A stretch of 64,000 bases of DNA from NCBI GenBank assembly GCA_051362555.1, contig CM120645.1, positions 15,686,001 through 15,750,000 of the forward strand, read 5' to 3'. Of this stretch, positions 10,672 to 64,000 are shown one piece after another. The stretch's first letter is position 1; the number at the start of each line of letters is the position of its first letter. The stretch comes from Lingula anatina. Taxonomy: Eukaryota; Animalia; Brachiopoda. The notes under the pieces are model-generated. The model saw only the letters and a program-made list of their open reading frames with translations, searched no databases and was not told the DNA's origin. The position numbers were made by a program, and so were the translations under genes.

Positions 10672-10673
10672 TA

Positions 10674-20697: not shown

Positions 20698-21032
20698 AGA
20701 TGCCATGGCCCAGCGAAATGAAACTGAGAGTGACTTGCTCGAGACTAGCAAAGTTGCTTAAGACTCCAGTTTTATGGCCAGGTTTATTCTAGAATATATT
20801 AAGCTCATAACCCAACACAGATTTATCAACTGCAAGAAAATAAAATGATCAAGTTGAGATGACGATTGTATCTCTTCTTAAGCAATGAATAAAATGTCTA
20901 TTGCTTTAAAATCTATTTCGTTAGTTTTGTTTGAAAGCAAAACTTCACACTGATGTTTTATAAAGGAAAAAATGTGTTCCATTTAAATTTTCATCAATTA
21001 AAAAAAATCTGTCAAAGGTTAAAATAATGATT

Positions 21033-25045: not shown

Positions 25046-25239
25046 TTATATCACGTCAATCGTGAAGGGGCTGCCTGGTATGTGATCTTCGCCCCACTTC
25101 ACCATAAGGAGGTACTGCCCTTTCTCTTTGACGCTATAGTTAACGGTGTATGTGTTCCTGCCTGTGAGACGGATGTTAATTTCTTCACACGGCGCTACGC
25201 CCTTAGGACCCATTACTCCCACAAACAACATGTTCTGAC
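25046..25239 (-). CDS. FLN: Filamin terminal exon (Ig24 dimerisation domain)
   Basis: [12 protein letters not shown]...[20 protein letters not shown]; AG acceptor. Confidence 0.95.
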
Positions 25240-40200: not shown

Positions 40201-43200
40201 AACGACCAGAGGAGCTAAAACCTATACTGAACTGCTCATCCCTTTAGGGGTTTTTACTCCAAAAATATTACGTTTCACCATGGGAAAGAAAAATTCCAAA
40301 CAAATTAAGCTTGAGGTTGGAAGAAACTTATCCCAACTCCCACATAAGGCTAGAAACAGTGGAGGTTGAAATTGAACAAAAATTGGGAGAAATTGCCCCC
40401 TAACAAGTAGTAGACCTCAGCAGCTGGGAGCTGTTAGTCTAAAGAGCAAACAGCCATCTATAACTTTGCTGAATAACAGAAACAAGGGGATATTCCCATA
40501 TTACTAAAAAACCCAAGTCAACTTATCCACATTCTAAATGTTTGAGAAATCGTGGAGTTATATTCTAATTTTTCAACTCACAAGATGTTTGTTTTTGTAT
40601 TTGAGGGAGATTGAACCCAGCTAAGTAACAGAACACAAATGCATCCGGCCAATGTTCACAAATCTTTTAAACAAGAAAACAACAGCATATTTAAACCCAC
40701 GTAAGTAACACCAAACATAGGTTTAACATTTTTACAAGTGTTTGACGTCAGGTAAACCGGGTTCGACTTGTTGGGTATATCACTGTAATACTTATGTACA
40801 GAAAAGAAGTCTTGTATGTGTGCACTGATGTGGCATAGGTATCATAAATATTTAGAAAAGTGCCACGCTGCTTTTTAGATGTATTTCATTTAGGGATCTA
40901 TGTTGTGAAAAATCCCATCTAGTCTTTACTTCCTTTAATTTCTAGGTGTTGAAAGACTGATAGATTCTTTATCACTTTTGAAGGCAAATAAGGCATCTTC
41001 AAATAAAAAACTTTTAAGTAGGTATCTGGTTTTATCCATCAAAACAGAATAACAGCTGATCGAACCCTTGCAAAAACAGATTCTGGATCTCTGATTAAGT
41101 TCTTCCAGTCAAAAGTCATCAGGACTTCATGGCATTTCACTGCAAACTACTGCAAAACAATACAAATTTCACAATGCAAATTAATAACATCTTCAAGAAT
41201 GTCAAAGTATTAAGTGGCTATCCCCTTTTTACCTTCAACCTCTAAAGTACCCCATTAAAAACCTTATTTTCTTCATTTGGTGTAAGCCAATTTAACAGCC
41301 ACTGAATTCAATGCATGGCTCAGCCTATGAAAGAATGCATTTCATCCATTATGCAATTTGGATGTAAAAAGTCTTTGCAATATAAACACAGGGCCACTAG
41401 CATATGATAGGAAGATTTCGAGAAAAATCTAATGACTAGTCTGTTAAATCAGAACTAGAAAACTGAGTTTAGATTATGAAAGATAGCAACTTAAGCTGCA
41501 AGGCAGTTTGACTCTCTCTAATTCAATAAACCCCAATAAACGAGATAATTATTCATATTGAACAAATCTTGGGGCAATGCAACTTCAATTTCCTTCAAAA
41601 GTTAAGAGCAGAACAACATCAACTTTTTAAATATGCCACACCCGGACTACAGAAAATACCTCCCATCATGTGACTTTATACTTCTCACAAAACTTTCTAT
41701 ATAGTGTAGTTATAATGTTCCTCAATGACATTAAATAAATACTCACTCTTGGTTTTTTCATTCGCATAGAATGACATAGACCTCACCAAGGGTTTCTTGG
41801 GATTTCTGGAGCTTTTTCTCGCAGACATCTTAGAGCCTGATAATCCAACCAAAGTTGACGCTTAATCCTGATAACTATACCCTGAGAGACGGGAGAGACT
41901 GAAATGCAATGCTCCTCCTTTGAAAACACAGGGCAAAGGTGTTTTAATCTTCTCAATGGCAGTCACTCCACTCTGTTCATATGCCTGAGAAAAAGTACTT
42001 TTGGCAAAAGCAATATTCCAAGAGTAGTTCTGCTAAAAATATTGTGCAACTCAAAACACCTGAGACAAATTCCACAGTAGAAGCTTCACAAAAAATCTTC
42101 TACAAGAATACTGTACAAAATGACAGAAGTTTTTTTTTTTTTATATATATAAATCTATCTCCAGTGGATGATAATCTTTCTTCCAGCACCAAAGTAACTT
42201 CCGCAGATGAAATCTGAGCAAATCAAGCCAAATGTTTGTTCAGTCCGAGAAAAGTTTCCCCTAGTGCTATATGACAACTGGGAAGGTTTGAACTGCTTGC
42301 CTATAGCCCTCTCCACAACACTGACCCAATACCTCCAGTTCCCCTGGTGAACTGCTTGGTCCCAGATGGAATACAAGGCTGCTATTGACACCACTATCTC
42401 ATTTGTTAAATCAGTAAACTCTCACCAGGGGGACCTAGTGTAGCCAAAGGTGCTCAGGAGAGCCGCACAACAGAGGAAGATGCACACACACACCTGCTGT
42501 TTTGAACCAAGATGAGCAGATATACGAGGGACTGAATTCCAAGATTCCAGATCATTGGCGTAATTGACTTAGTTAACTGCACGGCTGCAGTTACGTTACA
42601 ACTCGTCATAATCCATCCCCTCGAGCGAGCTCCTTCAGTCGTATCCTCCTCTAAAAATACCCCGCTGTCCAAATGAGGAGGGATTTATTCCTTGGCACGC
42701 TCAGCCACTGACAGATCACAGGCGTTCCCTCTCCAAACTATTCCAATGAGCACACACAAGTGTTTTGTTTGCTCTTTTTAAAGGTCTATTTTAGAATTTG
42801 AGATCAAATATATCTGAGTGGCCAAAATTTGCTGGAACCGACCTGCAAACAGTTTTGGGGTTTGCAGACAAGGACTGTAGAATTAGTATTCAAGACACAG
42901 CATCAAGTTCATTCACAAAAGGCAAACCATAAGACAATTCCAGATTGTTCTTTTTGAAATCAGACTGTTTTTTTAATGTTACAGTTGCAAGCCCAGCTGG
43001 AAACCACCTGAACAACATGAATCAGCAGTGACCCATTACTTGCCTAATACCATCACACTAAATAACAAGGAACCTGTTCATAACTTTACCAGTGTAAACA
43101 CACCTCAACAGTCAAGTTAAAAACATTTTTGAAAGACATTTACATTTCATTCCTGAGTGATCATTTCTTGGATTGGTCTGTGTTGTTTTTGGACACAGGC

Positions 43201-45070
43201 AGGCTATCTAGTTGCACAACATTAGCTGAAAGATAAACAACAACACGAGTGCCTTGGATGCCTTATTTATGCATCTGCCCACTTCAAATTTTTCACCCCT
43301 TTTTTTTAAACCCGCTCCCAGCTGCTGTTACAGTATTTGTCTAAGTTATTTGCCTGTACATTTGCAAAATTGATGAAAACATCTTTTCTTTTTCTTACAT
43401 AAGTTCAGCATGTTGTAACATTTTACATCATCAATTAATAAATATCAATGATCTATCACATAATTTTGGAACTCTACTGGTCTGATCTTTGATAAAATCC
43501 ATAAAATCGATATTTTGAGAACTCTTTTTGGGAGCAAGATCCCACTGGATTAGCCATTCACTCTTGACCTGCTGTCGTAAGTGACGGGAGAGTAAACAAC
43601 TGGGCAGAATTCTTGTGCCATGGACGGAATTTTCACATTATCATTTCTATCATTTTCTTCATAATGAAATCATCATCTTCTGAGAGTTGTGTGCATTTCT
43701 GGACTATTTTTACTCTAAGACTAATTATAGGGGGCTGGGATTTAGGAAATCAGAATTTCTTTCACCTTTGAACTTGAACATCCCCATCTTTCTATCAAAG
43801 GTTCAGAAATTTGGCATACAGATTAAAGCCCACCTAAGTGCAAAAGAAAAAAAACATTGCTCTTTTTAAGTTTACTTTTTCGTGGTTATATTCACAGATA
43901 TAGCAAATCAATTATCAACAATTTTGTAATGCAGTTTGTTTCAATATTACATCATGAAATACTGATCAGTTGTACTCAGGGTATAGACATTTACTATGGT
44001 AACTCCAATATGTCATTGGAATACCCTTCAAAATGCGCATGTCTAATTTCTGTTATTTTTTCATTTATAAAACCAGTACAACTTGTTGTAAAACAAGACA
44101 ACTTAATTTCTGACACCACCCCGCCATGCTATAAATCCTTCCTTAAAAAACTTACAGGTGAAGACGAAGCTGAAGTAAGGGAAGATAAGATGTTGCCTAA
44201 AATTGCCAGAGGAGAGGGTTTTTTCTCTAGCTCAAGTGCACCAGAAGTATATAGGAAGCTATCCCACTGTCTGCATATGTGGATTGCAAGACATCTGGAA
44301 TCTGACGGAGAAGTTAATGCGTGGTGATATACACAGCTTCGTTTTTTCCTACGGGCCGATGGTGCTTTAAAAAAGCAACTTTTTGAAGTTCTTGTTTCAC
44401 GCGTTTAAATGTCTGATTTGCCCCAAAGGATCAAAATGCTTTGGAAAGAAGGGCACTTTTTGAAGTTATGGAGTCATGTAGAATTTTGGACTATCTTGCC
44501 ATATTAGGTTTGCCATTCCTACAGTTACTTCTTTTATGAAGTCACTGCCCTTCACAGTCTCCTGGTGTTAAAGATTAATCTTATTGGATGGAAAAAATGC
44601 AACTTTTGAGTCAAATTTTCCGGAAATATCAATTTAATTTCAACTTCAGAAAAAGACTAAAAAATAAAAAAAAAGGTTTATTGAAACCACATACCTCTAA
44701 AATCTACGTTAGTTTGAAGATTATTTTTGTGAGTTAACATTTTGAGTGAGACAAATTAATCAATTGGTCAACAGAAAAAGGCCTTACCATACGTTGCATA
44801 TAAAGAAGCAATGGTAAGAAATGGATAGCTGGCATTCACAAAACCCATTCTAAAGAGATGGGCCAAAGATGAGACTGCCGTTTAGTAAAAAAGTCACAGA
44901 TGATATGGCTTAGGTCCAGGGGGCCACCTTGGCCAATTACATTTTTGGCTCCCAAAAAGTTGGAAATCTGCTGATAGTCAAATATCATTTTCATTCCTGA
45001 AAGAATGATGGGCAGATGAACAGATGGCATGGGAGAGATGTGTGTGTGTGTGTGTGTGTGTATGTGTGTG

Positions 45071-45127
<57 letters not shown>

Positions 45128-48100
45128 GGGGGGGGGAGAACACATTCAAACATATTTAAGTCTAATCTCCACAGTTGCTGCTATAAATTTCAAACAGAAC
45201 CACTCTCACCGGGCAACAACTCCATCACCACACCCGATTTCATGGAACTATTTATTAACCATGTATCCTAATTAATTTGACTCCAACTTGACCTCTAGAT
45301 CACCCCTGCTTCCAGGTACACATCTGGTCTGGGAGTAACTTTCTCTTACCTGTGCTGAAATTCCCAATGCCAGAAGTTCCCCAATAATTTTCAGAGCTTC
45401 ATTGTTTCAACACTTATATGATCAATATTTTTTACATATCCCCTTTAGGAAAACCTTACTTTCTAAATTATACTTAACTTTTTTTTTTTTGGGGGGGGGG
45501 GGGAGGCAAGAGTCGAGGGAGTGGCATTAACCAGCTGTGCACCCCCTCCCTCCTAGATGCATCATAATTCTTAATATCCATCCAGGTAATAAAAATTTCA
45601 TATCCAAGAATCTGGATATTCGGGTGATAAGGCAGAAGATAAATTAAAAAATACTACTGGAAACTCCTCATATGCATCCAGGGAAAAATCCCATATCCAT
45701 GATTCCAATTTCCTTTCATCTTATTTTTCCAAAAAAGAGATAAATTACAATGGCATTCTGACATACAGAATCATGCCAAGAATCCCATATCAAGTCTTTT
45801 CTGTCAAAGATTTGGATGGATGATTAAATTACTGTGGACTGATATCTTACTCATATACATCCGGGTGTCACACCATCAGCTGAAAAGTTGGACTCCCAGA
45901 AATGCATTACTTTAAGTGCTTCTGAGAATCTCTAGAAAAAGTTTTCTGTGTGAAATGTGCGTGTCATTTCTGCTTTCTACCAATGCGAGGGCCACAGACT
46001 GTGCTGCATGCGTGTAATGTTGATAGTTAATTAAAGCGTCTGGGTGTAGGCAGTGAGTGAGATTTAACGGCATACCTGTATGGTCTTTCAGTGTTTTTTT
46101 TCTTAATAATACAAACAGATGTGTCTTTCCTACATATATATCTGTCTACTGACTCAAACTAAAAAATTAACAATTTTTCTAGAGCTGATATTTGATATTT
46201 GATCTGAAAGCAGATCTGATCTCCCCCCCCCCCCCCCCTCTCTCTCTCTCTTCACCTCTGCATGTCAGAAAAAAACAAGTTTTACTCAAGGCTACATTTC
46301 AGGCCTGTGCCAGCATCTCCAAAGGGGGGGGATCTTTCTGATATAGTGAAACTTTTTTACCCCCTTAGTTGATTTAAATAAAATTTAGATCAAATTTTGA
46401 TTCAGTGTGAATTTTTTTCCAGCCAGAAGAGCCATAGTTTTGAACCCCTAAGTTTATGTGCCTGCATTTATTCTTCAGTACCTGTATTTCTCATAGCATG
46501 ATCAGAAGACTTTGATCCACTTTTTTTCTCCAAGAAGCAAAATCAAAACAGCACATAAATCACATTACTCACCAGAATAAATGTGCAAATCAGACATATC
46601 TCACCAATCGCTTCACAAACTATAACTAATGTCAAACGTCCACCTCTGAAATCATACCAAGCCAGTGACCGATGACTGTGACGCCTACATGATTACAGTG
46701 TATTTGCCATACACTTATTTTTATTAGCTATTTTGATTTCCCCCTGTTTCATTCACCGCCAGTTCCCCCAGTATAATTTGAAGAAAGCTTTTAGGCAGTC
46801 TGGTAAATCCAGTGATGTGCCTTCTGCCAGAGTTAATGCACTTCTTATTCACCTGTGCTGACCCTAAGGTCACTCTGTGTTTGCAAAGCACCATTCATAT
46901 GTTTGCTCTCTGTCAAACAATTTTGAGAAACAGGACTGGTGCTGCACTCTGGTGGAGATGATATAAACTTAACGCAAAATATTTCACACGATTTAAAACC
47001 AAAAAATGTAAAAAAAAAAATAAAATAAAAATAAATCCCAATGTGGTACAAGTTTATTCTAACAAAAACATTTTGAAAGAATTTATAATAATAACTGCAC
47101 AGTAGGATTCTTTTGTTAATTATGTCAAAAATGTTCTGAGACTGGACTGGTGCTGTGCTCTAGTGAGAATTTTTTCAAACTACAGGCACCACCTCTTTAA
47201 TATAACAAATGCTGTTGAATAATTATTTCTTTATAATTGAGCAAGAGATATAAAAAACAGCTGCAAAATGATGGCAGAGGTGGAATTAGGATTACTTTGA
47301 TTCAGCCATCTTTGATGCATTGTGCTGCACTCTGGTGAGGAATCAGTTAACTACATTTAAAGATCTACTTTGCAATATTGGAAAAAAGGATAGCAGAAAA
47401 CAGGCAAGCAAAGTTTTAATGCAAAATCATTTTGACCTGCATGTGGATTTAATGCTCATTTAAATGACATAAGATGCCGCCTTTTTTCTTAATAATACTA
47501 TAAAATATAAAAACTTTGAAAATGGAAATCTGAAAACATGTTTATAAACAATATAGAACAAACAAAAATATAACATCTGAAAGTGCATAAAGTTTTCAAA
47601 TCAATCTCAAGTAAAATGTTATGAGAAACCCTAAATATAAAACAATCATCACATCCACATCCCTTTTTTTAACCTTCAAAATTTCTGTCTCACCATTATA
47701 CACTATAATACATTTAAACATGCATGTTTAGATATGAGAGCACAAACATGTTGCTAGAACACAGCAGGTGGGTATATGCAAATCAGCAAATAAGGGATCT
47801 GTAAATAAAGAATCTTTAACAGGGGAGCCATGAAAATAAATTCTTGCACATTACACTCTCCCTCTCTCTCTCTCTCACGAACACACAAACACACACATGC
47901 AAGCACACACCAAAAACTGTCACATACCTGCATCTTTAGTATTCACGGTGAATTGATTCACTTCGTTGGCCATGCCTTCCTCCAGTCCTTTCCCAGAAAC
48001 CTTCACCCTGCTGGCATTTCCCAGCTCTTTCTCGCCCACGCTGATAATAAAAGGACTGTTGCGAATGGGTTGCCCATTCTTGTAGACATTCACCTTGTGG

Positions 48101-51100
48101 TCGCCTTTCTCTTGGGGAGTAAATGAGATTCCTGGAAAATAGAAAACAGGGTCAATCTGTCAAATATTTTGAATTTTTGTTTGTTTGTCTCTCTTTCGCT
48201 TTTTTTTCGCAAATAGGAGTGGCTGCATCAACACATACATGCCCATCCCAGTCAAAGTGTTGAATATTTTACCTTCATTTTGCATTGTAATTTGAAAAAA
48301 AAAAAAATTAGTAAAACATGTCTTCAACAACCCGGAACATCTGGGACTCCTCTATGTTGACTGTGGGGTCAAAGTGGTACTTATTTTTACAAGGCTGCTT
48401 TCTGCAAAATTTGAAAATTAATTTATAAGGACAAGGCGTCAAATATTTTTAGGCTCTCTTTTTTGCCAAGTTTTTGTGATTTTCTTTCACCTTCAAGAAA
48501 ATCAGTAAAATATGTATTCAAAGATCTTCAACAGATGCAAGTGATTGATCATTTTGCATTTGAAAGTGACATTATCAAGTCATTAGTTTCAGCAAATTAG
48601 TTTCAGAGGAAAAAATATGCCTGGGGTATGTTAAGGTCTGATAAAATAACCGATAACAAATGAAACAGCAGCAAATAATTATTACTCCCAAAATGCTGGA
48701 ATTTCAAACATAATCCATACTCAGGTAAGATTAACACACACGTCTGTAAGCAAAGAAACTGGAGGTGAGGTAGTTTTGCTTCAGAAACAGGTCAGGTTTG
48801 GCCAGATCAGACATGGTTGGGCTAGGCACAATCTCTGAGCTCAACTAACGCAATCTCAACCTGACACATTTTAACCTTCCAATGAAATTTGATTTTGATG
48901 ACACAAAACATTTTCATGTGTACACCGCTTCCCCAGTATAATTCTTCTTTCATTTCATAGCATTAAGCCTAAAAAAGGATCTATTCGCTCAAACAGATCA
49001 GCATGAAATGAAATCTCAGAACAATACAATGCAGAATGCCTCAATGAATATCTCATCTAGTTATATTCAACAGCAAATAGTTGTTTTTGCATAAGTCAGT
49101 ACAGATATAGTGGGACAAAACATTTCCTCTTACTTCTTATTTATCTTTGAAGGAAATTACCCCACTAATTCTTACCAAGATGTCCATTGGGCAGTCTCTT
49201 GAGGATACAGGGCTGCTCTTTCCCAGATGGACTAATAATATTGGCTGTGAGAGTGGAGATGTCCACGTCCTTGATGTCCAGGGAGATGTCACTGCTGGTA
49301 CCTACGGACACCTGCGACTTCTTCTTGCCCTCTCCTAGAACATACAATATGGTGGGTTGAAATACAAATTCCGTTTGGTGGCAAAAGTGGTATGAGAACA
49401 AGTGCAACTCTGACCGATAAGACTTTCACAATGTTTTTTTTTTTTTTTTGCTTTAATTGAAAACCTTTATTATCATACTAGTATGATAGAAATCCATTTC
49501 TGTTTGCTACCTTGAGCACAAAATATTAATTATACTGAAAATTATACATCTGATATGTTTCAACAATACTATTTCTACTTCATGGATGGAAAAAAGTTAC
49601 ATACTGCAATAACAAGGGGGGAATAAGAAAAATTAACACTAATGACAACAATATAAGACTGACCACAAGTAGCCACGATCAACAGACAAATTCTGACAAA
49701 GACACACAGCCTTAATAACAGCATTAAGGTTTAAACATACAATAATATCCAACAACATTACAAACACCTGAACCCAACAATCTCAACATACAAACATACA
49801 AACAAACAAACATCCATCCATACAAACATCCATCTTTCCACCTCACAAATGATAATGCAACACATCACTGAATCACTGTTGAAACATACAAAGAATAAAT
49901 ACTTACATATTTGTGTGTCCATCTACCAAAGCATTGATAAAAAATACAATAGTATGTAAAACAGCAGAGAAAGAGAAGATTTATTCAGAAGAATTGAGTT
50001 AAAATACAAGAAGAAATATTTATTCAGGAGAAACAATGCAATGGAAGAGAAGGAAGCCCTCTGATATAGCATTCATAACTATTCAGATTTGAAAGTAACA
50101 CATCTAATTATCAGTGAGTTTCTGAAGCTTTTGCTTGAACTATTCAAGTAGAGAAAGAGAGAGAAGCCTATTATAAAGTTTTTAACAATGGCTACTATTA
50201 ATCACAAATGGCCCATAAGAGCATTCATACAAAAGCCAAAAATTTTGCATACTAAGCATTAACATGCTCTTTAAAACTTCTGCAGTTAAATAACAATACA
50301 TTATTTACAAGGAGCACAACTTCAACTCCTGTATCTTTTGATATGGAATGAAAGAGAAAGTAGAAAGATAAAAGATCTAAAATTTAAAAAATCACGTTCA
50401 AATACACCTACGGAAAAAAGCAGTTTTCAGTGAGAAAAAAAAGCCGGAAAATGCACGAGTCTGTTTCAGATACTGGTTACCTGCAGGGGCTCCCTGGGTG
50501 GGTCTTGTTCGTCTACGTCTTGGCTCTCTTTTCCGAGCCTCACCCACTGGCACCATTTTCTCCCCTTCTGAGCCTCTCTGTGGCCCTGCTTCATCTCCCG
50601 GGTAATACCCATCAGGAGATTCAGGGGGAAACTTCCCCCCATCTTTATATTGAGCCGCAACTGGCACCCTCTCCCCTTCAGTGCCTCTCTGTGGTTCCAC
50701 ATTATCCCCAGGGTAATATCTATACACAAAAGGGGTATCTTGGGGTAACCTAACCCCACTCCCATGAGGAGGTTGTTCACTTTCCCCCTCCTGGCCATCT
50801 CCAGGCACTGACCCTACTGGACGGTCATATAAGTAGGTGGACACTGGCTGGCCACTGGGTATGGGTGATGGAGACCGGTCACGTGCTGATGGCATGACAA
50901 TGAACTTGACTGGGTCTCTCTGCTCCCATTTACCCTCTTTGGGTTCAGCTGGGGATGGAGTAGTATCAGACACAGGGACTGTATATCTCACTGGGATGCT
51001 ATTGTCCCCCTGAGGGCCTGAATCTGGCTTTTCAACCCTGGGGGTCCCGTGACTGCTTCTTGGTTTAGCAGACTCTGGGGCACTCTTTCCTGGTTTATCT

Positions 51101-54100
51101 TGCTCAGGAGTGATATCTTGGTAAATGACATTAGGTTTCTGTGGAGTTGGAAATTTATCATCTTTATCTGGTTTGTCACCCTGTTTTCTGTCTTGTCTAG
51201 TTCTTGGCTCTTTGGACTCAGGAGTGACATCTTGGTATGTGATGATGGCTCTCTGTGGGGTTGGAAATTCATCACTGCCTGCTGCTTTATCTTCACCTGG
51301 TCTGTGTTGCCTTCCTTCTCTATCGCCCTCTGGTGTTCTGTCTTCACCTGGCCTACGACGCCTTCTCTCTCTGTCACCCTCTGGTGTTCTGTCATCTTCG
51401 GGTCTATCAAGCCTTCCCTCTCTGTCGCCTTCTGGTGTTCTATCTTCTGGCCTACGACGCCTTCCCTCTCTGTCACCCTCTGGTGTTCTGTCATCTTCCA
51501 GTCTGAGATGCCTTCCCTCTCTGTCGCCTTCTGGTGTTCTATCTTCTGGTCTACGACGCCTTCCCTTTCTGTCAACCTCTTGTGCTTTATTTTCAGGTCT
51601 ATGCAGCCTTCCCTCTCTGTTGTCCTCTAGTGTTCTGTCCTCTCCTGGTCTGTGACGCCTTCCCTCTTTGGCATCTGAAGGTTGTGCAGAAGGTTGTGGC
51701 TGTTTTCTTGCTGAAGGTAATTCATATGCTGTCATAGCCCTCTGTGGGACTGGAAATTCCTCATCAAATCCCTTTTTAGTAGGACTAGAGTCAGGCACCT
51801 TATCTGGCCTTCCCTCATAACTCTGCTTTGCTCGCTGAGGCCTTGGGAAGCTCTGTTCACAAATATAGGGGGCGACACTGTAGCCAACAGGTTCAGATTC
51901 TGCACTGCCTGGAAATGATGTGCTTTGTGGATTTTTATGTAGATACTTGTCTTCATTCACTGGGATTTTCTTATCCATTTGGATGTTTCCCTCCCTTGGT
52001 CTTTTAGGTTCTGGGCTGACACCTTGGTACAAAACAGTTACTTTCTGAGGAGTTGGAAATTCATCATCTCTGTTGTCTGGCCCTTGTCGATCATCCTGGG
52101 GCCTTCCTTGTTGGTCTCTAGGCCTTCTAGGTTCTGGGGTTACATCTTGGTACACCAGAGTCACTTTTTGAGGAGTTGGTAATTCATTATCTCTGTTGTC
52201 TGGTCTTTGCTTTTCATCCTGGGGCCTTCCTTGTTGGTCTCTAGGCCTTCTAGGTTCTGGGGTTACATCTTGGTACACCAGAGTCACTTTTTGAGGAGTT
52301 GGTAATTCATTATCTCTGTTGTCTGGTCTTTGCTTTTCATCCTGGGGCCTTCCTTGTTGTTCTCTAGGCCTTCTAGGTTCTGGGGTTACATCTTGGTACA
52401 AAACAGTTACTTTTTGAGGAGTTGGAAATTCATCATCTCTTTTGTCTGGTCTTTTTCTATCATCCTGGGGCCTTCCTTGTTGGTCTCTAGGCCTTCTAGG
52501 TTCTGGGCTGACATCTTGGTACAAGTCGGTAACTTTCTGGGGAGTTGAAAATTCATCATCTCTGTCATCTGGTCTTTTTCTATCATCCTGGGGCCTTCCT
52601 TGTTGGTCTCTAGGCCTTCTAGGTTCTGGGCTGACATCTTGGTACAAAACAGTTACTTTTTGAGGAGTTGGAAATTCATCTCTGTCATCTGGTCTTTTTC
52701 TACCATCCTGGGGCCTTCCGTGTTGGTCTCTTGGCCTTCTAGCAGGCTCTGGGCTGACATCTTGGTACAAGACGGTAACTTTTTGAGGAGTTGGAAATTC
52801 GTCATCTCTGTTGTCTGGCCCTTGTCTATCATCCTGGGGCTTTCCTTGTTGTTCTCTAGGCCTTCTAGGTTCTGGGGTTACATCTTGGTACAAAACGGTT
52901 ACTTTTTGAGGAGTTGGAAATTCATCATCTCTTTTGTCTGGCCTTTGTCTATCATCCTGGGGCCTTCCTTGTTGGTCTCTAGGCCTTCTAGGTTCTGGGG
53001 TTACATCTTGGTACACCACAGTAATTTCCTCGGGTTTTGGAAATTCACCTCCTCGTCCAGGTCTGTCATTCTGGGGCCTTCCATGTTGATCTCTTGGTTT
53101 TCTAGGTTCTGGAGATACATCTTGGTACAACACAGAGACATTATCGGAAGTTGGAAAGTCATCATCTGGTCTAGGTCTGTCACCATGAGATGGTTTTTGC
53201 CTTTCATCCTGGGGTCTCCTTTGCTGGTCTCTTTGCCTATTAGGTTCCGGGGTTATATCTTGGTACAGGACAGTAACTTTCTGAGGAGTTGGAAACATAT
53301 CATTGTCTGTGCCTGGTCTTTTTGCTGGGTAACTGTTTCCCTTGCCATATTGTTTGTCACCTGGTATACCTGCTTCAGGGGTCATGTCTTGATATGAAAC
53401 AGTAGCTTTCTGAGGGGTTGGAAACTTGTTTTCCCCACCAGTTGGTGGCCTGAAACCACGTGATTCACCTTTCCTGTCTCTGGGTTTCCTGGGCTCTGGA
53501 GTCACATCTTGATATAGGACACTAGCTTTCTGAGGGATTGGAAAAGCATCATCCCCAAAGCCTGGGCTGTCTGTGTAGGGACTTTCTGGCCTTTTTCTCG
53601 GAAGTTCAGGAGTCACATCTTGGTAAAAAATAGCTGCTTTCTGTGGCGTTGGAAATTCATCATCATTCTCTGGACTTCTTTTACCCTTACTAGGACGTCC
53701 TTGTGGTCTACTACGTTTGCCATCCTGTCTATGTTGTGGTAAATATTCCTCCCCTGGGCCTAGTCTATCAGCAGGAAATCTTTCTGGCCCTCTGCCAGGT
53801 GGTTCAGAGATGAAAATTTGGTTTGTGACAGTAGCTACCTGTGGTGTTGAAAAATCATCATCCTTTTCTGGCTTTCCCTTCCCATAAGCTCTGTCATCTT
53901 GTGGTCTTACCTGTCCAACATCTCGTCTGTCGATCTGGGTGCTCGATTCTGGGGTAATATCCTGATACAGTACAGCAGCTTCTCGAGGAATAGGAAACTC
54001 ATCATCTTCTTCACTACCTGGGGTATATTTATGAGGTCTCTTCACCTGGTGTCTGCCTTGTTCATCAACATTTGGAGTAGTATATTGATATGTGACAAAT

Positions 54101-57100
54101 GGTTTTTGTGACGTAGGATATTCCTCATTGCCAGCATCTGGCTTTCGACCCTGGGGTCTGCTTTCTTTTCCCATTGGTTTACCAGACTCTGGGGTGAAAT
54201 CCCGATATGCGATAGTAGCTTTTTGTGGGGTTGGAAACCTATCATCATCAGAGCCAACTCCTTTATCCACAGGTATGCGTTGTTTCACTCTGGTATTTTG
54301 AGGCTCTGGAGTAACAACTTGATATATTATATTTGCTCTCTGTGGTGCAGGAAACTCATTTTCACCATCCCCTGGTCTTTTGTCCTGGGGTTTATACTGT
54401 CTGTCCCCTAGTCTTTTTCTCTCTGGGGTAATATCTTGATACATGACATTTGCTCTCTGTGGCATTGGGAACTCATCATCATCTTTTACTCTTCTGTCTA
54501 CTACAGGGATGTCACTTTGAGGGCCCTGTGGTGTGCCCTTCTCTTTGTCTAATGTTCTAGGCTCTGGGACCATATCTATATATGAAACCATGTGTTTCTG
54601 TGGTACTGGGGACTCAACATACTCATTCAGTTCAGGCTTTTTCTGATAACCAGGTTCTCTATCCCCAGGGATATATTTTCGATCCCTTGGGATTCCACTC
54701 TCAGGGGTGACAACTTCATTCTTCACATTAGCCTTCTGTGGTGCTGGTGACTCATCATCACCATCAGTGCCAGGGCGTGGCCTGTCACCCTGTGGTTTCC
54801 TAGGTGTGTCCTGTGGTTTTAATGGTAAAGCTGAAGCCACCACAATCACCTGCTGGGGTTCTAACACCTCACCCCCTGGTGGGATGAAACTCTGTTCTTT
54901 TCTATCTTTAGGTGTAGGCATTCCCTTACCTTTCTGGCCAGGAACCTGTCCAATACCTTCATATACTCTAGGCTGCCTGACAAGCTTTGGTACTGCTTTT
55001 CCTGGGCCTCTGGGTTTTGCCTTCATATTTGGGCCACTGATGTTCCCAGGCTGGGGCCCAGGTTTTCTATCAACAGGCCCAGAATATGGATGTCCATCAG
55101 GATAATCCTCTTGGTGAATTATATGTACAGGCTGAGATTCAGGTTTTCTATCAGTAGGACCAGAATAAGGATGACCAGCAGGACTCATATCTTGATAAAC
55201 GATGTTCACTGCCTGAGGCCCAGGTCTTTTATCAGTAGGGCGAAAATGTGGATATCTATCTGGGCTCATATCTTGGTGAATGATATTGACCACTTGGGGT
55301 TCAATTTTTCTATCATAAGGAGAAGCACTAGGTATGTCACGTTTTCTACTTTTCTGTGTGATTTCCTGGGGTCTGTTTCTCTCAGTTATATCAGGAACTC
55401 CAACCACCTGTTCCCCAGGGTGTGACCTATCCCTAGGGGTGGGGTGGCCAGGTCTGCCATCTTGGTGAATGATCCGAATTTCCTGTGGCACTGACTGGGG
55501 TGCTTCTTCTGAGGAAATGGGTTCACCTGGAAAGGTCGCCAGCGAAATAACTTGTGGCACCTGTCCCTCCAATTTTGGGGATGGGCGCTGATAATCATGG
55601 TCTTCTTTTGGCCTACCAGTACCTTTAACTGGCTCATCTGGTTCAAAGGAAGCAATTAACCTTTGTGGAGTGGGAAATTCATCATCAAAGGGTGGCACAG
55701 GCTGACCTGCCCTTTGGTCGGGTTTTTGTCTTCCCTTCTCTGGCTGGGGAGGTTTCACTTCACTTTTAAATGACTGTGCAGGAATCTCCATTGACTTAGT
55801 GCTAATTGGAACATCTGGGTGGCCAGAGTATGGTATCCAGTCATAGTCTGGGGCACCTGATCCTGGAGAAACAGTACTGGGGCTTTTGGTATCTGGTTTT
55901 CTTGATGCTGGAGATTCTAAACCACTTTTTGGTTTCTTCAACGGTTGCTGTGCTTTTTTAGGGATGTCACAATGACGAGTTAAGGAAGCCTGTTGGGGTT
56001 CTGGAAAATCACTCTCAAACCCTGGTTTATCAGAACCCAATTGGATTTTCTGTGGGACGGGTAAACTCTCTTCATGCACAAAAGGTTCCACACAAAATCT
56101 CATTGGTTCTGATTCTTTAAGCATTTCAGGTTTACCTTTCAAATCCTTTTCTATGACATTTGGAGGCTGCTTGGTCTCTTGTTGTTTGTCAGGAGGTTGC
56201 TGGCCAGACTTACTGGCATCAGGTTTCTTTTTACCAGGTTCAGCAGGGACCCATTGGGCTTTTTGTGGGGAAGGAAATATTTCATCCTCAGCAATGGGCT
56301 TCATGTTAATCAGCAGGGGCTCTTGTACTTTAACACCATCAACACCTTTGGTATCTGTTTTTGGGGGTACCTCAGTGCCTGCAGGGGTTGGACCCGGAGA
56401 CTTAGAGAATACAGGTATCAAGTTTGGCTGATCTGGTTTACCAGGAGGGGTCGGATACAAACCAGGCCCATCTTCAAAATCAATTGGCACAATTTGAAAT
56501 TTGAGTGTTTCTGGTGGACGTTTTGGGAAACTGGAGAGTGAATCAGAAATGTTAGTTGTATATGTCTTCCGCGTCTCGGTGATTTTTTGTATGATCTGTG
56601 AGGACGGCAATGACATACGCCTCTCCACTAGTCTGACTGGGATATTCACATCAAATATATCCTGGCCTTGACTATAGGGGGCAGCAGTAGTACTATCACG
56701 CTGTAAAGGAAGAGTGTAGTACCTCTCTTGAACATTTTCTGAAAGTGATGTTTGCAAATTTGAAGTTGGACCAGTTTTAAATACCCCTGGTGAAGTAGAC
56801 TGCCCAATGGGTAAAACATAGAAACTTCTCCCTAAATTTTGAACTTGGGGTGGACTTGTGCCCTGTGTCACAGTTCTGCGTACCCTGCGAGTCGTGGTTT
56901 TAGTCCTTTTGGTCTGAGTTCCAGTATCGGGATTGTACTCTATGGAGCAAGTTTGGGTTTCCTCCACAGGGTGACTATTTCCATCAGCCAGGTGCTCCGT
57001 ATGAAAGCGCTGAATTTCTGAAGACGGGAGAGAGTATCTCCGCAGAAAATGCCTCTGTGTTCTGTTCTCTGTGACATATCTTCTTGTGGTCGTAGAAGAC

Positions 57101-60100
57101 TCTCTGACTGTAGTTGTTGTGGTTTTCACAGATGCCATGATGTGAACTGTTTCCTATAAAAGCTGTCTGATGTTTCTCTTTTCTATATTATTAAGAAGTG
57201 TTGCAAAAAAGTCAAAAAAATTACCACAAGTACAAATTGTACATTGCCTGTCTGCCCAGTCTGTTATGCTGATAGAGTCTAACTCTCATAAGGCTACCAA
57301 TGCTGAACATGAAAAGCCTCCTCTTTAACACGAATAAGTACAAGTAAACATTGTAGCTGTATAGAGCAGGGTTATCTCCAGCAAAAACCCCAGCATTCCT
57401 GTCTGTATAACTGAGAGATACTGTTGCCAGTGCGGCTCAAAGAAAGTTCTACTTCATCGTCTTCCTCTCACACAAGACTAAATCACCTTGTATTTATGTG
57501 GGCTGAGGGAGTCACTCTCTGTTTAAGCCTGAGCCAGAAATACATACTTCAACAAGCTCCAGGAATTCAAAGGTTAAACTAAAAAACGGCTCAAAACACC
57601 ATCTCCAAGTTTAGGCAAAATTACACTTCAATGATGACTCAGGCTAACATTCCCTGGAGAAACTGCGAAGATTTAAGTCGTTAGATGCTAGAACTGACAA
57701 GATATTCTCAAGTCTCGGGTTTTTTCGTGATGCAATTTATAGATCACTGTAATTAACTGTGCCATGGATTTCCCTTGATTACATGTTCAGATGCTGCGTA
57801 TTTTTAGAGAGTGAGCCGAGAATCCTGCGGTGAACTGGCTAGGAGTATCTTCACCTGGAAATGTCATGGCTTGTTTAACAGAAGGTGGGGGGAAGTTAAG
57901 GGGAGAATTGCCTCCTCAGACCTTTTCTATCTCAGCAAGAACATCCCCATCCCCGCCGGATCCACTTTGTTTGAGCACTTAGTAAAATGACAGCTACGCT
58001 TATAATGTAGTACATTATGACGTTAAATATAAGATGAATCAAATAAAAGGGAGACAACTTCTAGAATCTACCTGGCAGTTCCAGCAAAGAATCAATCAGT
58101 ACCTGTAGGACTTGAGCCAAAGCTGTAGCATTCTTGGAATTCCTACCAGGTAAGTCTGTGGGATGAGTTTAAGCACATAATTCAAAATAATATCATTCCC
58201 AAGTAGGTGGTTAATGTATCTGTGGGGTACAAAATAACACCTCTTGAGACATTCGCCAACACCTACTAACGTAAGTTTTACAGTAAATTATCATTCTAAG
58301 TGTTTAATAGCTTTACAAACACCCAGTTGGAAATGCTAGGCAAGGTACATTTGTTTTCATTAAACTGTAATATTACTCTTATGTATCAGCAGCATACTTT
58401 TCAAAAATGAACCTAGGGTCAACTGCTGTTTATCATTACACTTATTTTTCTACTGGGTGAATTCTTGCAAATGACGATTCCTCTAAGAGCAATTATGAAA
58501 TTTCAATACAAAATATGCTTTTAGAAAACCTGTCATGCTAAGTGTTTTTTCGCTGATCACAACCTCAATGCTTTAGCAATTTAAAAACACAACACTGGGT
58601 TTTAAATAACTTTATTTTCAATTAAAAACCTGACACAAGTTACAAAAACGTAGAGGGGAGAAACTTCAAAACACCGTTAAGCACTGATGCAAAGATGAAC
58701 AGAAGAGGCTACATCTGGATACTGCAAGACTTGTACAGGAAAAGAGCTACAAGAAAAAACGCTGTTGGTTTTGAATGCTCCACCCATGGTCTGAAGGCAG
58801 ATGATGATTTATAGAGAGCACCGTATGACCCATCACTCCATGCTGGTAGTCTGTAGCTAATAGGCTTATTCATTCATATAGCATTACTCAATGCTTCAGC
58901 ATGAATGATAAACTACAGTGCCTTCAAAAAGGATGTAAAATTTTGTCATCTTTTTAGTCTTTTTTCATGTTCTTTTGCTGTTAGAAAAATATGGCATGTA
59001 ATAGATAATTTGTTAAATTTTATCTTATAAACCAGAGGTATTTGAGGCCTGTATGTTATAAAACAAAAATACAGTTCATTATAAAAACAAAAACAAAGCA
59101 ATATTGATTCTAATAAATAATAAATTCTGTATGTGCTGCTTCAGATTTTTCCTTATTTTCTTTTTCTAAGTTCTGATGGATACCAAGTATTTCCTTTTCC
59201 CTTTCGTTTCATTACAACAAAATGGGTGCTAATGAATAAATAAACCAACAAATACTGTATGTGCTATTTATTCAATTATAGATTATTTTCCTACTTTCAG
59301 GTAAGATTGGATGTACTTGGATATCAAGTACAAATGGCTTGAAAATACATCTGCATGTCTATCAAAGGTTAAGCATCAATTTCTAACTTCAATTTATATA
59401 GTTTTTTCCATGTACTGATCCTATTGAGATATTTACAAAAAAACAGTATTCTGAATTAACATGGACAAGGAAAAAACTAATAATGAGACTGACAAAAATA
59501 ATCTGAAAGATATATCTGCCACTGTAGTCTAAAACAACGCTGATTCAGACAGATAAAATTCATTAGTCTAGCATTTAAATAAAAAAACTGCCAATAAAAC
59601 AGTGTAATGAGCAAATGCCAGCAAGATGATATATTGAAATATAATGAAAGATGCAGAAATATAGAAAACCAGGTACAAAAGTCAAATATACACATATGAA
59701 ACACATACTGCTATACCACACTCCTTCACAGACACACATATCATACAAATATACCTGTGTGCTATAGTGTTTTGCTATTTATTATCATAATATAAATCAG
59801 TCTAGCACAAATATATCAGAAACACCAACCAAATATATGTGTAGCACAAAGACTTTAACAAAAAGCATGCCGGGTCTAAGATGAATACATTTCAGGTGAT
59901 TTGCTCACATTCATAGCACACAGTAAAACATGGGGTGTATATTTATGACATGTAACCTATACAAATAAAATGCATCTATCACCTACCTGCTGCAAGGGTG
60001 ATCCAGAAATATATACCATGACAAAGATCTCATACGTATACATACCCACATACAGCTATGTAATTATACAAGCTGGCACCATTTTTACCATTCTATTCAT

Positions 60101-60435
60101 ATACATTACAAACAAATATATGTATTCACATATACGTACATTATACAAATACACTTCACTTTCATATACCTATACATATACACACATATATACGACATAT
60201 ACAGTCATATACTTTACACAGACATATATACATATACCACATATATTATATAGATTCCTACCTGCAATCTGTGCTGTGAATGGTGAGCCAGAGATGTGTT
60301 TGTTGTCAAACTTCACCGCAATCTGGTACTCTCCCGGAGCTGTGGGGTAGTAGCACACGGAGCACGTGCCATCTTTATTGTCCTTGCAGACAATCTCTGC
60401 TTTAGACGGACCCTCTACTGCCAGTGACAGGCCTC
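25046..60435 (-). CDS. FLN: Filamin, 3' half (Ig repeats 17-24); the gene continues beyond the window
   Basis: 14 phase-compatible exons encoding filamin Ig repeats ([74 protein letters not shown]); repeat numbering is by similarity to human FLNA from memory. Confidence 0.97.
25744..25935 (-). CDS. FLN: Filamin exon (hinge 2 and start of Ig24)
   Basis: [16 protein letters not shown]...FSVDTKDAG; AG / gtgag. Confidence 0.93.
28349..28505. mobile_element. Short MITE with degenerate TIRs
   Basis: ccctatccagaatagggg ... cccccttttctgaatgggg. Confidence 0.4.
29731..29949 (-). CDS. FLN: Filamin exon (Ig23)
   Basis: [23 protein letters not shown]...[14 protein letters not shown]. Confidence 0.95.
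30325..30495 (-). CDS. FLN: Filamin exon (Ig22/23)
   Basis: [30 protein letters not shown]...[12 protein letters not shown]. Confidence 0.95.
30777..30897 (-). CDS. FLN: Filamin exon (Ig22) with GC donor
   Basis: [40 protein letters not shown]; ends gaag|gcaagg. Confidence 0.88.
31217..31347 (-). CDS. FLN: Filamin exon (Ig21/22)
   Basis: [20 protein letters not shown]...[11 protein letters not shown]. Confidence 0.95.
31711..31848 (-). CDS. FLN: Filamin exon (Ig21)
   Basis: [40 protein letters not shown]. Confidence 0.95.
32189..32290 (-). CDS. FLN: Filamin exon (Ig20/21)
   Basis: [33 protein letters not shown]. Confidence 0.95.
32601..32765 (-). CDS. FLN: Filamin exon (Ig20)
   Basis: [11 protein letters not shown]...[26 protein letters not shown]. 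Confidence 0.95.
32767..33165. repeat. 55-bp minisatellite, about 7 copies
   Basis: Unit tacaattactgtacaataacatgacaatgtgatggtacaaaactatgtgtgaaga starting at 32767, 32822, 32877, 32932, 32987, 33042 and 33097. Confidence 0.95.
33403..33531 (-). CDS. FLN: Filamin exon (Ig19/20)
   Basis: [11 protein letters not shown]...[15 protein letters not shown]. Confidence 0.95.
34196..34290. mobile_element. Tiny Harbinger-like MITE
   Basis: TIRs aggtcgcgtttacactg / cagtgtaaatgcgacct with CAA on both flanks. Confidence 0.6.
36152..36332. mobile_element. MITE / fold-back element
   Basis: cattcagaacagcggactaacagatccacggatcaaatatggc and its reverse complement at about 36287-36330. Confidence 0.7.
37229..37381 (-). 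CDS. FLN: Filamin exon (Ig19)
   Basis: [51 protein letters not shown]. Confidence 0.95.
41747..41828 (-). CDS. Candidate alternative first coding exon of a short filamin isoform
   Basis: [27 protein letters not shown] plus 1 nt; donor gtgagt; phase 1 matches the exon at 37381. Confidence 0.35.
45038..45136. repeat. Compound (GT)n(GA)n(G)n microsatellite
   Basis: Direct reading. Confidence 0.95.
47928..48131 (-). CDS. FLN: Filamin exon (Ig18/19)
   Basis: [27 protein letters not shown]...FTVNTKDAG. Confidence 0.95.
49176..49334 (-). CDS. FLN: Filamin exon (Ig18)
   Basis: [14 protein letters not shown]...[20 protein letters not shown]. Confidence 0.95.
50481..57138 (-). CDS. FLN: Giant alternative filamin exon, about 2,219 aa of P/Q/E/D/R-rich disordered repeat protein
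   Basis: Uninterrupted 6.7-kb ORF on the filamin strand; ATG in atcATGg context; donor gcag|gtaacc at 50481 in phase 1, matching the Ig18 exon; the ORF tail beyond the donor looks intronic. Confidence 0.8.
51290..51670 (-). repeat. Coding repeat of 16-17 aa ([16 protein letters not shown]), about 7-8 copies
   Basis: Visible in the translation and in the DNA (ccttccctctctgtc.ccctctggtgttct). Confidence 0.9.
52005..53130 (-). repeat. Coding 123-bp (41-aa) tandem repeat [38 protein letters not shown], about 9 copies
   Basis: Period of 123 nt (e.g. gttctgggg at 52131 and 52254). Confidence 0.93.
60262..60435 (-). CDS. FLN: Filamin exon (Ig17)
   Basis: [58 protein letters not shown]; donor gtagga, phase 1. 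Confidence 0.95.
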
Positions 60436-63400: not shown

Positions 63401-64000
63401 TTCTCAGGCATATCTCTGGATATAAAGCACAATAAAATAAATATATGTCCATATGTACATTGTACATCTATAAGACAGGATTGAGCTCAGAGGCTCATAC
63501 TTACTAAGTCCTTCTATGTCTGTAAAAGTAAGTAAAAAGTCTTTGTTTTCTGTACAATATTAATATTTTGATGTTGTCCTGGTTATCTTGTTGTTGTCTT
63601 AGGGTGTTTTTAGCCTTAAGTTTTAGTTACAAGATGTCCTAACTGAACTTGGTAAGACAAAAGAGAAACAGGCCTGTCACATTCTTACAAAAATTAAATG
63701 AAAAAATCTTAAAACTGCCTTGGCCAAATTAATATCAGAAATATTTTTCTAGTGCCCACTGCCCTTCCTTTAATAGTCATAAAGAATTGTTAAAATATAT
63801 ATTTTGGTTGCTAGGTGACATTTAAAATAAAAGAAAAATTTTACTAGGTGGTAAACTGTGACTTGGACCTATATACCTATATTTTAATTCTAATTTAAGA
63901 AAAAAAAAAGGCAGCTTTTATTAATGCCTTACTGAGGTAGATATTTGACTGCATTGTGTTACACACCAGCATGAGCCTGAAACTATACACTAATTAACAT

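Follow-up and report, generated by a model that had tools for sequence, protein, structure and literature searches.

A giant alternative first exon spliced onto Ig18 within the filamin gene of Lingula anatina

The question raised by the locus

In the 64,000 nucleotides of Lingula anatina DNA analyzed here (the window, whose positions are used throughout), a very long open reading frame lies in the intron that separates the exons encoding filamin Ig17 and Ig18. Such an arrangement raises the question of whether this sequence is the first coding exon of a separate filamin isoform, a cassette added to the full-length protein, or an independent nested gene, and of what the encoded protein might do. 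The elements on which the argument rests are the following:

50481..57138, minus strand: coding part of the giant exon, from the ATG at 57138 to a GT donor after 50481; 2,219 codons plus 1 nt
49176..49334, minus strand: first shared exon, in which Ig18 begins (A strand included); both the giant exon and the Ig17 exon are spliced to it
25044..48131, minus strand: twelve further exons for the rest of Ig18 to Ig24, located by tblastn with 120 filamins and by splice sites
60262..60435, minus strand: Ig17 exon (strands C-G), Pfam Filamin E 1.2e-14; canonical filamin only
63505..63519, minus strand: microexon of 15 nt, encoding five residues before strand C of Ig17; AG/GT sites and reads

A long reading frame in a filamin context

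The initial annotation was accurate in describing 2,219 codons plus 1 nt in frame with Ig18, as the 6,658 nt of coding sequence continue in frame into the exon starting at 49334, and also in assigning a strong Kozak context to the ATG at 57138 (A at -3, G at +4), with an in-frame TAG six codons upstream (57156-57154). At the base composition of the exon, the log10 probability of a stop-free run this long is about -52, and stops number 55-248 in the remaining five frames; therefore, the reading frame is not a product of chance. The size of 6.66 kb first proposed for the exon holds for its coding span, whereas the exon itself measures approximately 7.0 kb once a 5' UTR of about 330 nt is included.

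Ig domains are named by vertebrate numbering, counted back from the C-terminus. Pfam PF00630 was recognized on 8 of the 11 upstream and downstream exon stretches examined, and the translation of exon 49334-49176 can be aligned to PDB 2K7Q (residues 9-57), which corresponds to FLNA Ig18-19 according to bioRxiv 10.1101/2025.05.02.651884. From 49334 onward, the filamin tail comprises 692 aa and seven Ig domains, is 67% identical to the full-length filamin P0144, and includes one GC-AG intron (after 30777); read support covers 49176-48131 and the beginning of the exon that follows, the remainder being placed by homology and splice sites. Ig24 is present by sequence (59-62% identical to its homologues), and its dimerization function is predicted. 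The 5' part of the canonical gene falls outside the window, and no tRNA or Rfam matches were found within its 64 kb.

The giant exon starts independently and is spliced to Ig18

Seven of nine raw-read RNA runs assigned by species label (X1, X2, X4, X5, X7, X8 and X9, out of X1 to X9) were then considered, with joints listed only when seen in at least three reads. They delimit the 5' end of the giant exon as follows:

57139..57480, minus strand: 5' UTR, defined by RNA depth, with transcription starting at about 57460-57480
57491..57498, minus strand: weak TATA-like box, lying some 25-30 nt upstream of where transcription is inferred to start

RNA coverage is unbroken from about 57470 in three runs, all from one study, and in X7 and X8 the exon is transcribed along its length. 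Depth in 120-bp bins over 57001-57480 is 39-61x in X7 and 17-32x in X9, compared with 1.0 and 0, respectively, in 57481-57600, and neither run shows joints or loose ends at this 5' edge. At the other end, covered for X7 and X8 among these three runs, the junction 50481-49334, which the initial annotation had suggested checking, is present in 31 reads of X7 and 24 of X8 (none in X1 and X4). Among the reads at the 3' end of the giant exon, 31 of 33 (X7) and 24 of 25 (X8) are spliced to 49334, and depth in 49701-50250, 3' of the donor, is zero in both runs. The Ig17 to Ig18 joint (60262-49334) is represented by 36, 318, 96 and 78 reads in X1, X4, X7 and X8, respectively, the giant exon accounting for approximately 24% of Ig18-entering junction reads in X7 and the same share in X8.

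These data bear on two other ways of explaining the locus. The second option of the initial annotation, a cassette that inserts an internal spacer into full-length filamin between Ig17 and Ig18, draws on the fact that joining 60262 to 57146 leaves a frame that is stop-free through the end of Ig24; the acceptor phases had been correctly described, since 57153 is out of phase (a stop follows within about 55 codons once the Ig17 exon is joined to it) while 57146 is open. Nevertheless, the 60262-57146 junction, also put forward for checking, is not listed in any of the seven runs at the three-read threshold, nor is any other Ig17-to-giant-exon joint, and loose ends at the 3' end of the Ig17 exon (60261) all enter the Ig18 exon (98, 82, 290 and 55 reads). 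Moreover, coverage is unbroken across both acceptors, and the in-phase AG of 57146 reads AA in 47/47 reads of X7 and 30/31 of X9. The pyrimidine tracts of both candidates are weak; that of 57146 (0.40) ranks last among 17 acceptors (0.50 for 57153, 0.50-0.90 for 15 others). The cassette is thus largely refuted for the animals expressing the exon, and we regard it as very improbable. An independent, single-exon nested gene would agree with RefSeq XP_013408319.1 (P0121), 'titin-like' [Lingula anatina], a stand-alone protein of 1,196 aa annotated from the first half of the exon without a link to filamin, and with a stop of its own that the frame reaches at 50400-50398, 27 codons beyond the donor at 50481. 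However, the junction reads and the lack of depth 3' of the donor refute a nested gene as the main product, which makes this explanation hardly credible. In addition, XP_013408319.1, an independent prediction, shares the start methionine and is 99% identical over residues 1-1185, and its end corresponds to this sequence read in the +1 frame past an A-run near 53590, where no indel occurs among the read variants listed; it is a frameshifted model, wrongly separated from filamin. The initial annotation would have been abandoned for a nested gene or for a frame never spliced to 49334; neither was found, and the splice to 49334 was seen.

Given the unbroken depth from about 57480, near-zero depth upstream, no joint from 60262 and the loss of the in-phase AG, the giant exon is an alternative first exon, not a cassette, with its own start inside the Ig17-Ig18 intron of the filamin gene. 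The first option of the initial annotation, the first coding exon of an Ig18-24 isoform lacking the actin-binding domain (ABD), is therefore borne out by a coverage edge of its own and by the 50481-49334 reads. No CH domain was found in the arm by Pfam and no upstream exon is joined to it, leaving an isoform without the N-terminal tandem-CH ABD. The evidence consists of short reads, from which a single molecule spanning 7 kb through Ig24 is assembled by inference; we are highly confident of this gene structure.

Expression of the giant exon is sample-restricted and differs strongly between studies. Its depth is 1-5x or less in X1, X2, X4 and X5, where the shared Ig exons are deeply covered, and the 50481-49334 splice was observed in X7 and X8 only; the absence of such reads from the reference-like X1 and X4 is to be read against a giant-exon depth of 0-2 there. 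Reads of X7 and X8 differ from the window at many fixed positions, with 8 such differences within the first 138 nt of coding sequence, and these animals may belong to a diverged population or a sister species. Inclusion of the microexon also occurs mainly in giant-exon-expressing runs, with loose ends supporting inclusion versus skipping at 34 vs 53 (X7), 43 vs 45 (X9), 8 vs 243 (X5) and 0 vs 61 (X2), and 27 and 24 reads at the microexon acceptor in X7 and X8.

Regarding regulation, TATA-like matches occur about twice per 862 bp in the window, so that the box at 57491..57498 is suggestive by position alone. Scanning the promoter of the giant exon revealed nothing convincingly typical of muscle genes: enrichment was absent for MEF2, CArG and E-box motifs, and MCAT (2 vs 0.33 expected) is too weak for use. 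Six upstream ATGs in the 5' UTR, each opening a short ORF, could lower translation of the giant isoform.

The predicted protein carries a disordered, repetitive arm

The predicted product has 2,911 aa and approximately 326 kDa, consisting of a 2,219-residue arm (predicted mass about 251 kDa) followed by Ig18-24, without the ABD and Ig1-17. Four regions can be distinguished within the arm:

56449..57138, minus strand: first ~230 residues of the arm, rich in S/T/R and less disordered than the rest; two RRxSLPSS motifs
51091..55692, minus strand: 28 copies of a 26-residue motif, detected by iterated HMM, mostly 37-48 residues apart
52001..53167, minus strand: tandem array of 123-bp (41-aa) period, 9.6 copies, 87% matches (TRF)
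51309..51667, minus strand: second tandem array, of 51-bp (17-aa) period, R/D/E-rich, ~59% charged

The arm is predicted to be disordered, with FoldIndex below 0 in 93% of 51-residue windows. The core of the 26-residue motif reads F-P-T-P-Q-K-[VA]-T-[VI]-L-Y-Q-D-V-T-P-E, with Tyr in 24 of the 28 copies, the two Gln in 25 and 23, and two Pro in 26, and the spacers between cores are poorly conserved, charged and proline-rich; as a control, the HMM found no hits in 49 of 50 shuffles and a single hit in the other. The 123-bp array appears to be young and to vary in length between alleles, as four read joints in or beside it skip 141, 612, 366 and 138 nt, each preserving the frame without introducing a stop.

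The titin PEVK region contains about 70% Pro, Glu, Val and Lys, with PPAK repeats. The term 'PEVK-like' in the initial annotation does not fit the arm, in which these residues sum to 35% (at most 44% in any one segment) and Pfam found neither PPAK nor titin; its only match, to Pcc1, was spurious, with no stretch passing, and the N- and C-terminal arm parts gave no match. SH3, EVH1, YxxP and PKA motifs are not enriched in the arm. The RRxSLPSS motifs may be AGC-kinase/14-3-3 sites; RRx[ST] as such is not enriched (3 vs 4.2 in shuffles).

Selection maintains the reading frame

Read variants within the reading frame were classified by their effect on the protein. Among those listed, 29 of 48 were synonymous and 19 non-synonymous, against 22-29% synonymous expected (P 1e-8 to 5e-6, omega about 0.19-0.26); the 48 comprise 38 of the 40 listed (376 more exist) and 10 from the 5' region, counted after an identity filter and mixing polymorphism with divergence. 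In the first 46 codons, 9 of 10 variants are synonymous, and in the exon body 18 of 38 change a residue. Moreover, the frame is kept by all four joints and by a 3-nt indel inside the ORF, with 5' UTR indels being of 1, 2 or 10 nt; one frame-breaking 1-nt deletion, at 54872, was present in 4 of 42 reads of X7. Altogether, selection acts on the reading frame of the giant exon.

The arm has a single database relative

The only database relative of the arm is the above-mentioned P0121. Word-indexed searches, whose range extends to proteins of 3,884 aa, found no homologue among 4,213 candidates of 1,220-3,884 aa; arm residues 1-1200, compared with 1.84 billion representatives, and the repeat profile, compared with 7,991 candidates of 71-2,000 aa, matched P0121 only. 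The repeat region had no usable match in the ESM Atlas, the repeat profile none in the PDB, and the arm N-terminus no similarity to the FLNC Ig20 insertion.

No such arm was found in 144 filamins fetched, in which a short Ig run is preceded by at most 165 aa of non-Ig N-terminus (P0115), except for 514 aa in a low-quality bird model. Apparent inserts at the corresponding position of a Solemya model (449 aa) and of carp models (~600 aa) turned out to be mis-assigned Ig repeats. Internal-start filamins lacking the ABD are already known from fly (FLN90) and worm (FLN-1C). No description of this Lingula isoform was found in a search of open-access literature, and the words 'filamin' and 'titin' are absent from the main text of PMC4595640 and PMC13121700.

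What the arm may do

In filamin mechanosensing, force travels from actin via rod 1 to masked sites in Ig16-21. With somewhat better than even confidence, we propose that the disordered arm serves as a long multivalent tether on an ABD-less Ig18-24 filamin, in a restricted and probably contractile tissue; on the tethering mechanism itself we are nearly evenly divided, leaning slightly against. An internal start in the Ig17-Ig18 intron yields a first exon of about 7 kb, spliced in frame onto Ig18. The isoform would dimerize via Ig24 and keep both masked ligand sites (Ig18-19 and Ig20-21), with the arm attached right at the A strand of Ig18, which is the first latch to be released by force. The 28 conserved short motifs would grip a repeated partner, and load would reach the mechanosensor through the extensible arm (contour length about 800 nm), bypassing actin and rod 1. 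An elastic or scaffold role and muscle expression are what we infer for this isoform; contractile tissue is suggested by analogy with ABD-less isoforms of the FLN90/CherA and FLN-1C type, which are muscle-enriched and located at the Z-disc or postsynapse, a neural or other site being conceivable. Since no relative was found outside Lingula, function stands without comparative support.

The same isoform can be read in other ways. The arm might chiefly be a phosphorylation-controlled docking array, its repeated hydrophobic-Tyr-Gln-Asp-Val core serving SH2 domains and tyrosine kinases and its Thr-Pro-Gln-Lys part proline-directed kinases, for which the stretch-exposed substrate domain of p130Cas is a model. 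Retention of Tyr in most copies is in agreement with this, as are 17 [SIVL]xYxx[IVL] and 20 [ST]Px[KR] matches, against shuffle means of 1.4 and 6.6; yet repeat copies are non-independent, which inflates the contrast with shuffles, and a conserved Tyr is equally compatible with any binding strand, so that we consider docking rather unlikely. Alternatively, the cores could bind as beta strands to the CD faces of filamin Ig domains, or stack on each other, so that the arm would draw many filamins into a self-assembled network or condensate. They do show the alternating hydrophobic pattern described for filamin ligands in bioRxiv 10.1101/2025.05.02.651884, and in a single-sequence model all nine cores covered take the form of strands, although its mean pLDDT of 35 is too low to count as structure. 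Furthermore, alternating hydrophobics are common in general, and the core ends in Gln-Asp where, by comparison with filamin ligands, another hydrophobic residue would be expected; this, too, seems unlikely to us. It is also conceivable that the arm is a largely passive, lineage-specific expansion, tolerated as bulk on an isoform that matters as an ABD-less Ig18-24 scaffold or competitor. Homologues outside Lingula were not found in the database searches, repeat number is apparently allele-variable, and residue-changing variants reach nearly half in the exon body; nevertheless, omega is well under 1, constraint is strong over the first 46 codons, and the cores of the motif were kept while spacers diverged, making a passive arm decidedly unlikely.

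Known systems and significance

Several known systems resemble the Lingula isoform. Drosophila Cheerio FLN90/CherA is likewise ABD-less, derives from the 3' part of its locus, keeps the mechanosensory region and dimerization domain, and is a tissue-biased scaffold without actin binding; however, it has 90-100 kDa and 8-9 Ig repeats, while the Lingula form has 7 Ig domains plus a non-Ig arm of about 251 kDa (PMC5173320, PMC5521747). FLN90 predominates in body-wall muscle and serves as a scaffold (PMC5173320), and the last 8 Ig domains of CherA are enough for Z-disc localization, with Ig19-22 binding titin (PMC5521747). In C. elegans, FLN-1C, FLN-2C and FLN-2D lack the ABD through alternative transcription starts, as in Lingula, and FLN-2 reaches 3,747 aa with large low-homology regions; FLN-1C, unlike the Lingula isoform, is only the last 9 Ig repeats, and FLN-2 is a divergent, jitterbug-like filamin whose low-homology stretches lie among 20 or more Ig repeats rather than in a single giant first exon of a canonical filamin (PMC3143143). 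The giant ankyrin-B exon encodes approximately 2,085 disordered residues with short repeats and binds cytoskeletal scaffolds multivalently, but it belongs to another family and occurs in vertebrates as an internal cassette (the fly counterparts being 3' exons), so that the likeness is architectural (PMC7401806); the Lingula exon, by contrast, showed no upstream splice in the runs examined. Exon 15e of Zasp52 is also long, disordered and tissue-restricted, and stabilizes the Z-disc scaffold under load, although it is an alternative internal exon of a PDZ-LIM protein and replaces no domain (PMC13521563).

A bolder extension, which we find doubtful as a whole, is that the Lingula filamin might be a titin-like hybrid, with a dimeric Ig18-24 sensor and two arms of about 0.8 micrometres gripping a filament or other filamins, tuned by allelic length and co-switched with the Ig17 microexon in contractile tissue, as one example of a broader tendency among invertebrates to exchange the targeting domain of a scaffold for a giant orphan first exon.

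Overall, the finding corrects public annotation, in which half the exon is currently a separate 'titin-like' gene, and the orphan 26-residue motif gives a direct handle for a partner search. Moreover, an isoform that starts at the Ig18 latch and carries an arm in place of the actin-binding half may represent a natural test of alternative loading of the filamin sensor, and also of the role of ABD-less filamins.

Giant open reading frame in the filamin gene

A filamin gene runs along the minus strand of the window, which takes in its 3′ half, and the intron between Ig17 and Ig18 holds by far the longest stop-free stretch. The features concerned are as follows.

57153-50401, minus strand, stop-free stretch of 2,251 codons
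57138-50481, minus strand, coding part of the giant exon, from the ATG to a GT donor (6,658 nt, i.e., 2,219 codons plus 1 base), in frame with the exon starting at 49334
49334 to a stop near 25044, minus strand, 13 exons encoding 692 aa with seven Ig domains
63519-63505, minus strand, 15-nt microexon, a five-residue addition to the B-C loop of Ig17 ahead of strand C

A chance open frame is excluded, since log10 P for a run of this length is about -52 and 55-248 stops interrupt the five remaining frames. On re-reading the sequence, the strong Kozak context of the ATG, the in-frame TAG upstream of it and the phase of either candidate acceptor (57153 and 57146) were all found as described in the initial annotation. 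The sole database relative is a "titin-like" RefSeq protein of Lingula anatina (XP_013408319.1), which is 99% identical and shares the start methionine; past an A-run it is read in the +1 frame, up to its end at residue 1,196. This A-run lies at about 53590 (minus strand), where the RNA reads list no indel, and the shift is probably an error or allele of an older assembly.

The downstream exons were defined by tblastn with 120 filamins and by inspection of splice sites. The Ig17/Ig18 numbering, counted from the C-terminus, is correct, because the exon at 49334 aligns to the start of PDB 2K7Q, described as FLNA Ig18-19 (bioRxiv 10.1101/2025.05.02.651884). One of the 13 exons, 30897-30777 (minus strand), is followed by a GC donor (30777-30776), on which an open frame across Ig22 depends. 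A full-length unnamed filamin of 2,720 aa is 67% identical to the Lingula tail, and has 25 Ig repeats, vertebrate filamins having one fewer. An intronic minisatellite (32767-33165; 55-bp unit, 7.3 copies) extends up to the Ig20 acceptor.

Transcript structure

Seven of the nine RNA runs carrying the species label were aligned, using 6-30% of the reads of each: X1, X4, X7 and X8 to 47501-64000 at 95% likeness, and X7, X9, X5 and X2 to 57001-60600 at 90% likeness, with joints listed at 3 reads or more. X7 and X8 covered the giant exon in every bin, and the predicted joint to Ig18 (50481-49334) was found with 31 and 24 reads, respectively, where cover at position 50488 was 33 and 25. As the canonical Ig17-Ig18 joint (60262-49334) had 96 and 78 reads, about 24% of the junction reads into Ig18 come from the giant exon in these runs. 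X1 and X4 showed the canonical joint only (36 and 318 reads), with a giant-exon depth of 0-2.5, and the thin cover in X4 was mostly in the orientation of the filamin exons.

The initial annotation left open whether the giant exon starts an isoform lacking the actin-binding domain (ABD) or is a cassette between Ig17 and Ig18. No joint was listed within 57001-60600 in X7, X9, X5 or X2, the 60262-57146 joint that a cassette would give included; every loose end at the donor of Ig17 continues into Ig18 (98, 82, 290 and 55 reads); depth over 57001-57480 was 39-61x in X7 and 17-32x in X9, falling to 1.0 and 0 in the following bin; and at 57147 the in-phase acceptor has lost its G, which is A in 47/47 X7 and 30/31 X9 reads. 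For these reasons, the giant frame is assigned to a first exon, about 7.0 kb long, whose start falls around 57460-57480; a TATA-like box lies about 25-30 nt upstream of that start. A cassette within full-length filamin is thus largely excluded, as is an independent nested gene, given the joints into Ig18, and the alternative first coding exon is supported. These short reads record joints singly rather than one end-to-end molecule, and the full-length isoform is a predicted one.

The Ig17 microexon belongs to other, upstream-initiated transcripts. Its inclusion nevertheless tracks the giant exon between runs, as it reached 39% and 49% of informative reads in X7 and X9, compared with 3% in X5 and 0/61 in X2.

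Variation and selection

Reads of X7-X9 carry many fixed differences from the window, eight of them in the first 138 coding nt. This divergence exceeds the 1.6% heterozygosity reported in PMC4595640, and the animals may represent a diverged population or sister species. X7, X8 and X9 are labelled as the same species, and their fixed differences are commoner over the giant exon (50481-57480) than over the exon of Ig17.

Among coding variants, 29/48 were synonymous, against 22-29% expected (omega about 0.19-0.26), including 9/10 in the first 46 codons. The 48 comprise 38 giant-exon variants among the 40 listed for 47501-64000 (376 further ones lay outside the count and two in Ig exons were excluded) and ten coding variants from 57001-60600, the two changes in codon 12 being scored separately. 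Four joints inside the frame (141, 612, 366 and 138 nt), some of which may be mis-joins between repeat copies, all preserve it, as does a 3-nt deletion; a frame-breaking 1-nt deletion occurred in 4/42 reads, and indels of the 5′ UTR were of 1, 2 or 10 nt. The 612-nt skip (52437-53048; 5 reads in X7, 3 in X8) has GT-AG ends on the minus strand, and may mark a minor exitron, or else two repeat copies joined in error.

Other features of the window

A decayed transposase at ~100-1150 (plus strand) has a helix-turn-helix of the paired-like type (Pfam PAX, E 6e-08), the remainder being broken by stops and shifts; in appearance it is Tc1/mariner-like. A tRNA-like stretch at ~5740-5830 (minus strand), recognized by eye with no ARAGORN or Rfam call, is possibly a SINE head.

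Dispersed repeats downstream of the filamin gene (0.7-1.9 kb, 80-88% identity)
6945-8809 and 19125-21028
10551-11820 and 14106-15449
4136-4826 and 17292-17978

Predicted protein and possible function

The predicted isoform has 2,911 aa (~326 kDa). Its arm, the product of the giant exon, contains 14.9% Pro, 10.0% Arg, 8.8% Asp and 8.0% Gln (PEVK share 35%), and 93% of its windows are predicted unfolded, compared with 19% in the Ig tail. An S/T/R-rich head of ~230 aa bears two RRxSLPSS motifs, and a 26-residue motif recurs in 28 copies over residues 483-2016, nine to ten of them within a young 41-aa tandem array; a second array has a highly charged 17-aa unit. A single-sequence AlphaFold2 model of 400 array residues (pLDDT 35) drew every core as a strand, which is a hint at most of a strand-forming repeat core. 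Pfam, PDB, the Atlas and homologue searches yielded no arm relatives beyond the RefSeq protein; these collections probably include few brachiopod proteomes, and the result therefore says little on other lophophorates.

The isoform would retain the mechanosensory and C-terminal Ig parts, with the arm joined at the A strand of Ig18. In Ig18 and Ig20, the A strand is reported to cover the ligand site of the domain that follows (Ig19 and Ig21, respectively), and to be freed at a few pN (bioRxiv 10.1101/2025.05.02.651884, in fly numbering), and the Ig18-21 region to guard Z-discs against contractile damage (PMC11221683). Short ABD-less fly isoforms are described at Z-discs, their last Ig domains binding titin (PMC5521747), and one scaffolds the muscle postsynapse (PMC5173320). 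The arm, with a contour length of about 800-840 nm, might take over the anchor role of the actin-binding half. Its layout of short conserved motifs within variable, flexible spacers is that expected of a multivalent tether; giant ankyrin-B is a parallel, and its binding is reported to scale with repeat number (PMC7401806). The main rivals of the tether are an arm serving as a phospho-docking array and one acting as a self-ligand.

ABD-less filamins with internal starts have been reported in fly (PMC5173320, PMC5521747) and worm (PMC3143143). A comparable arm was absent from 144 filamin sequences, most limited to 2,000 aa, and our literature search found no published description of a giant-arm isoform. 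Altogether, the giant-arm filamin of Lingula is real and transcript-supported, and is a new form of ABD-less internal-start filamin.
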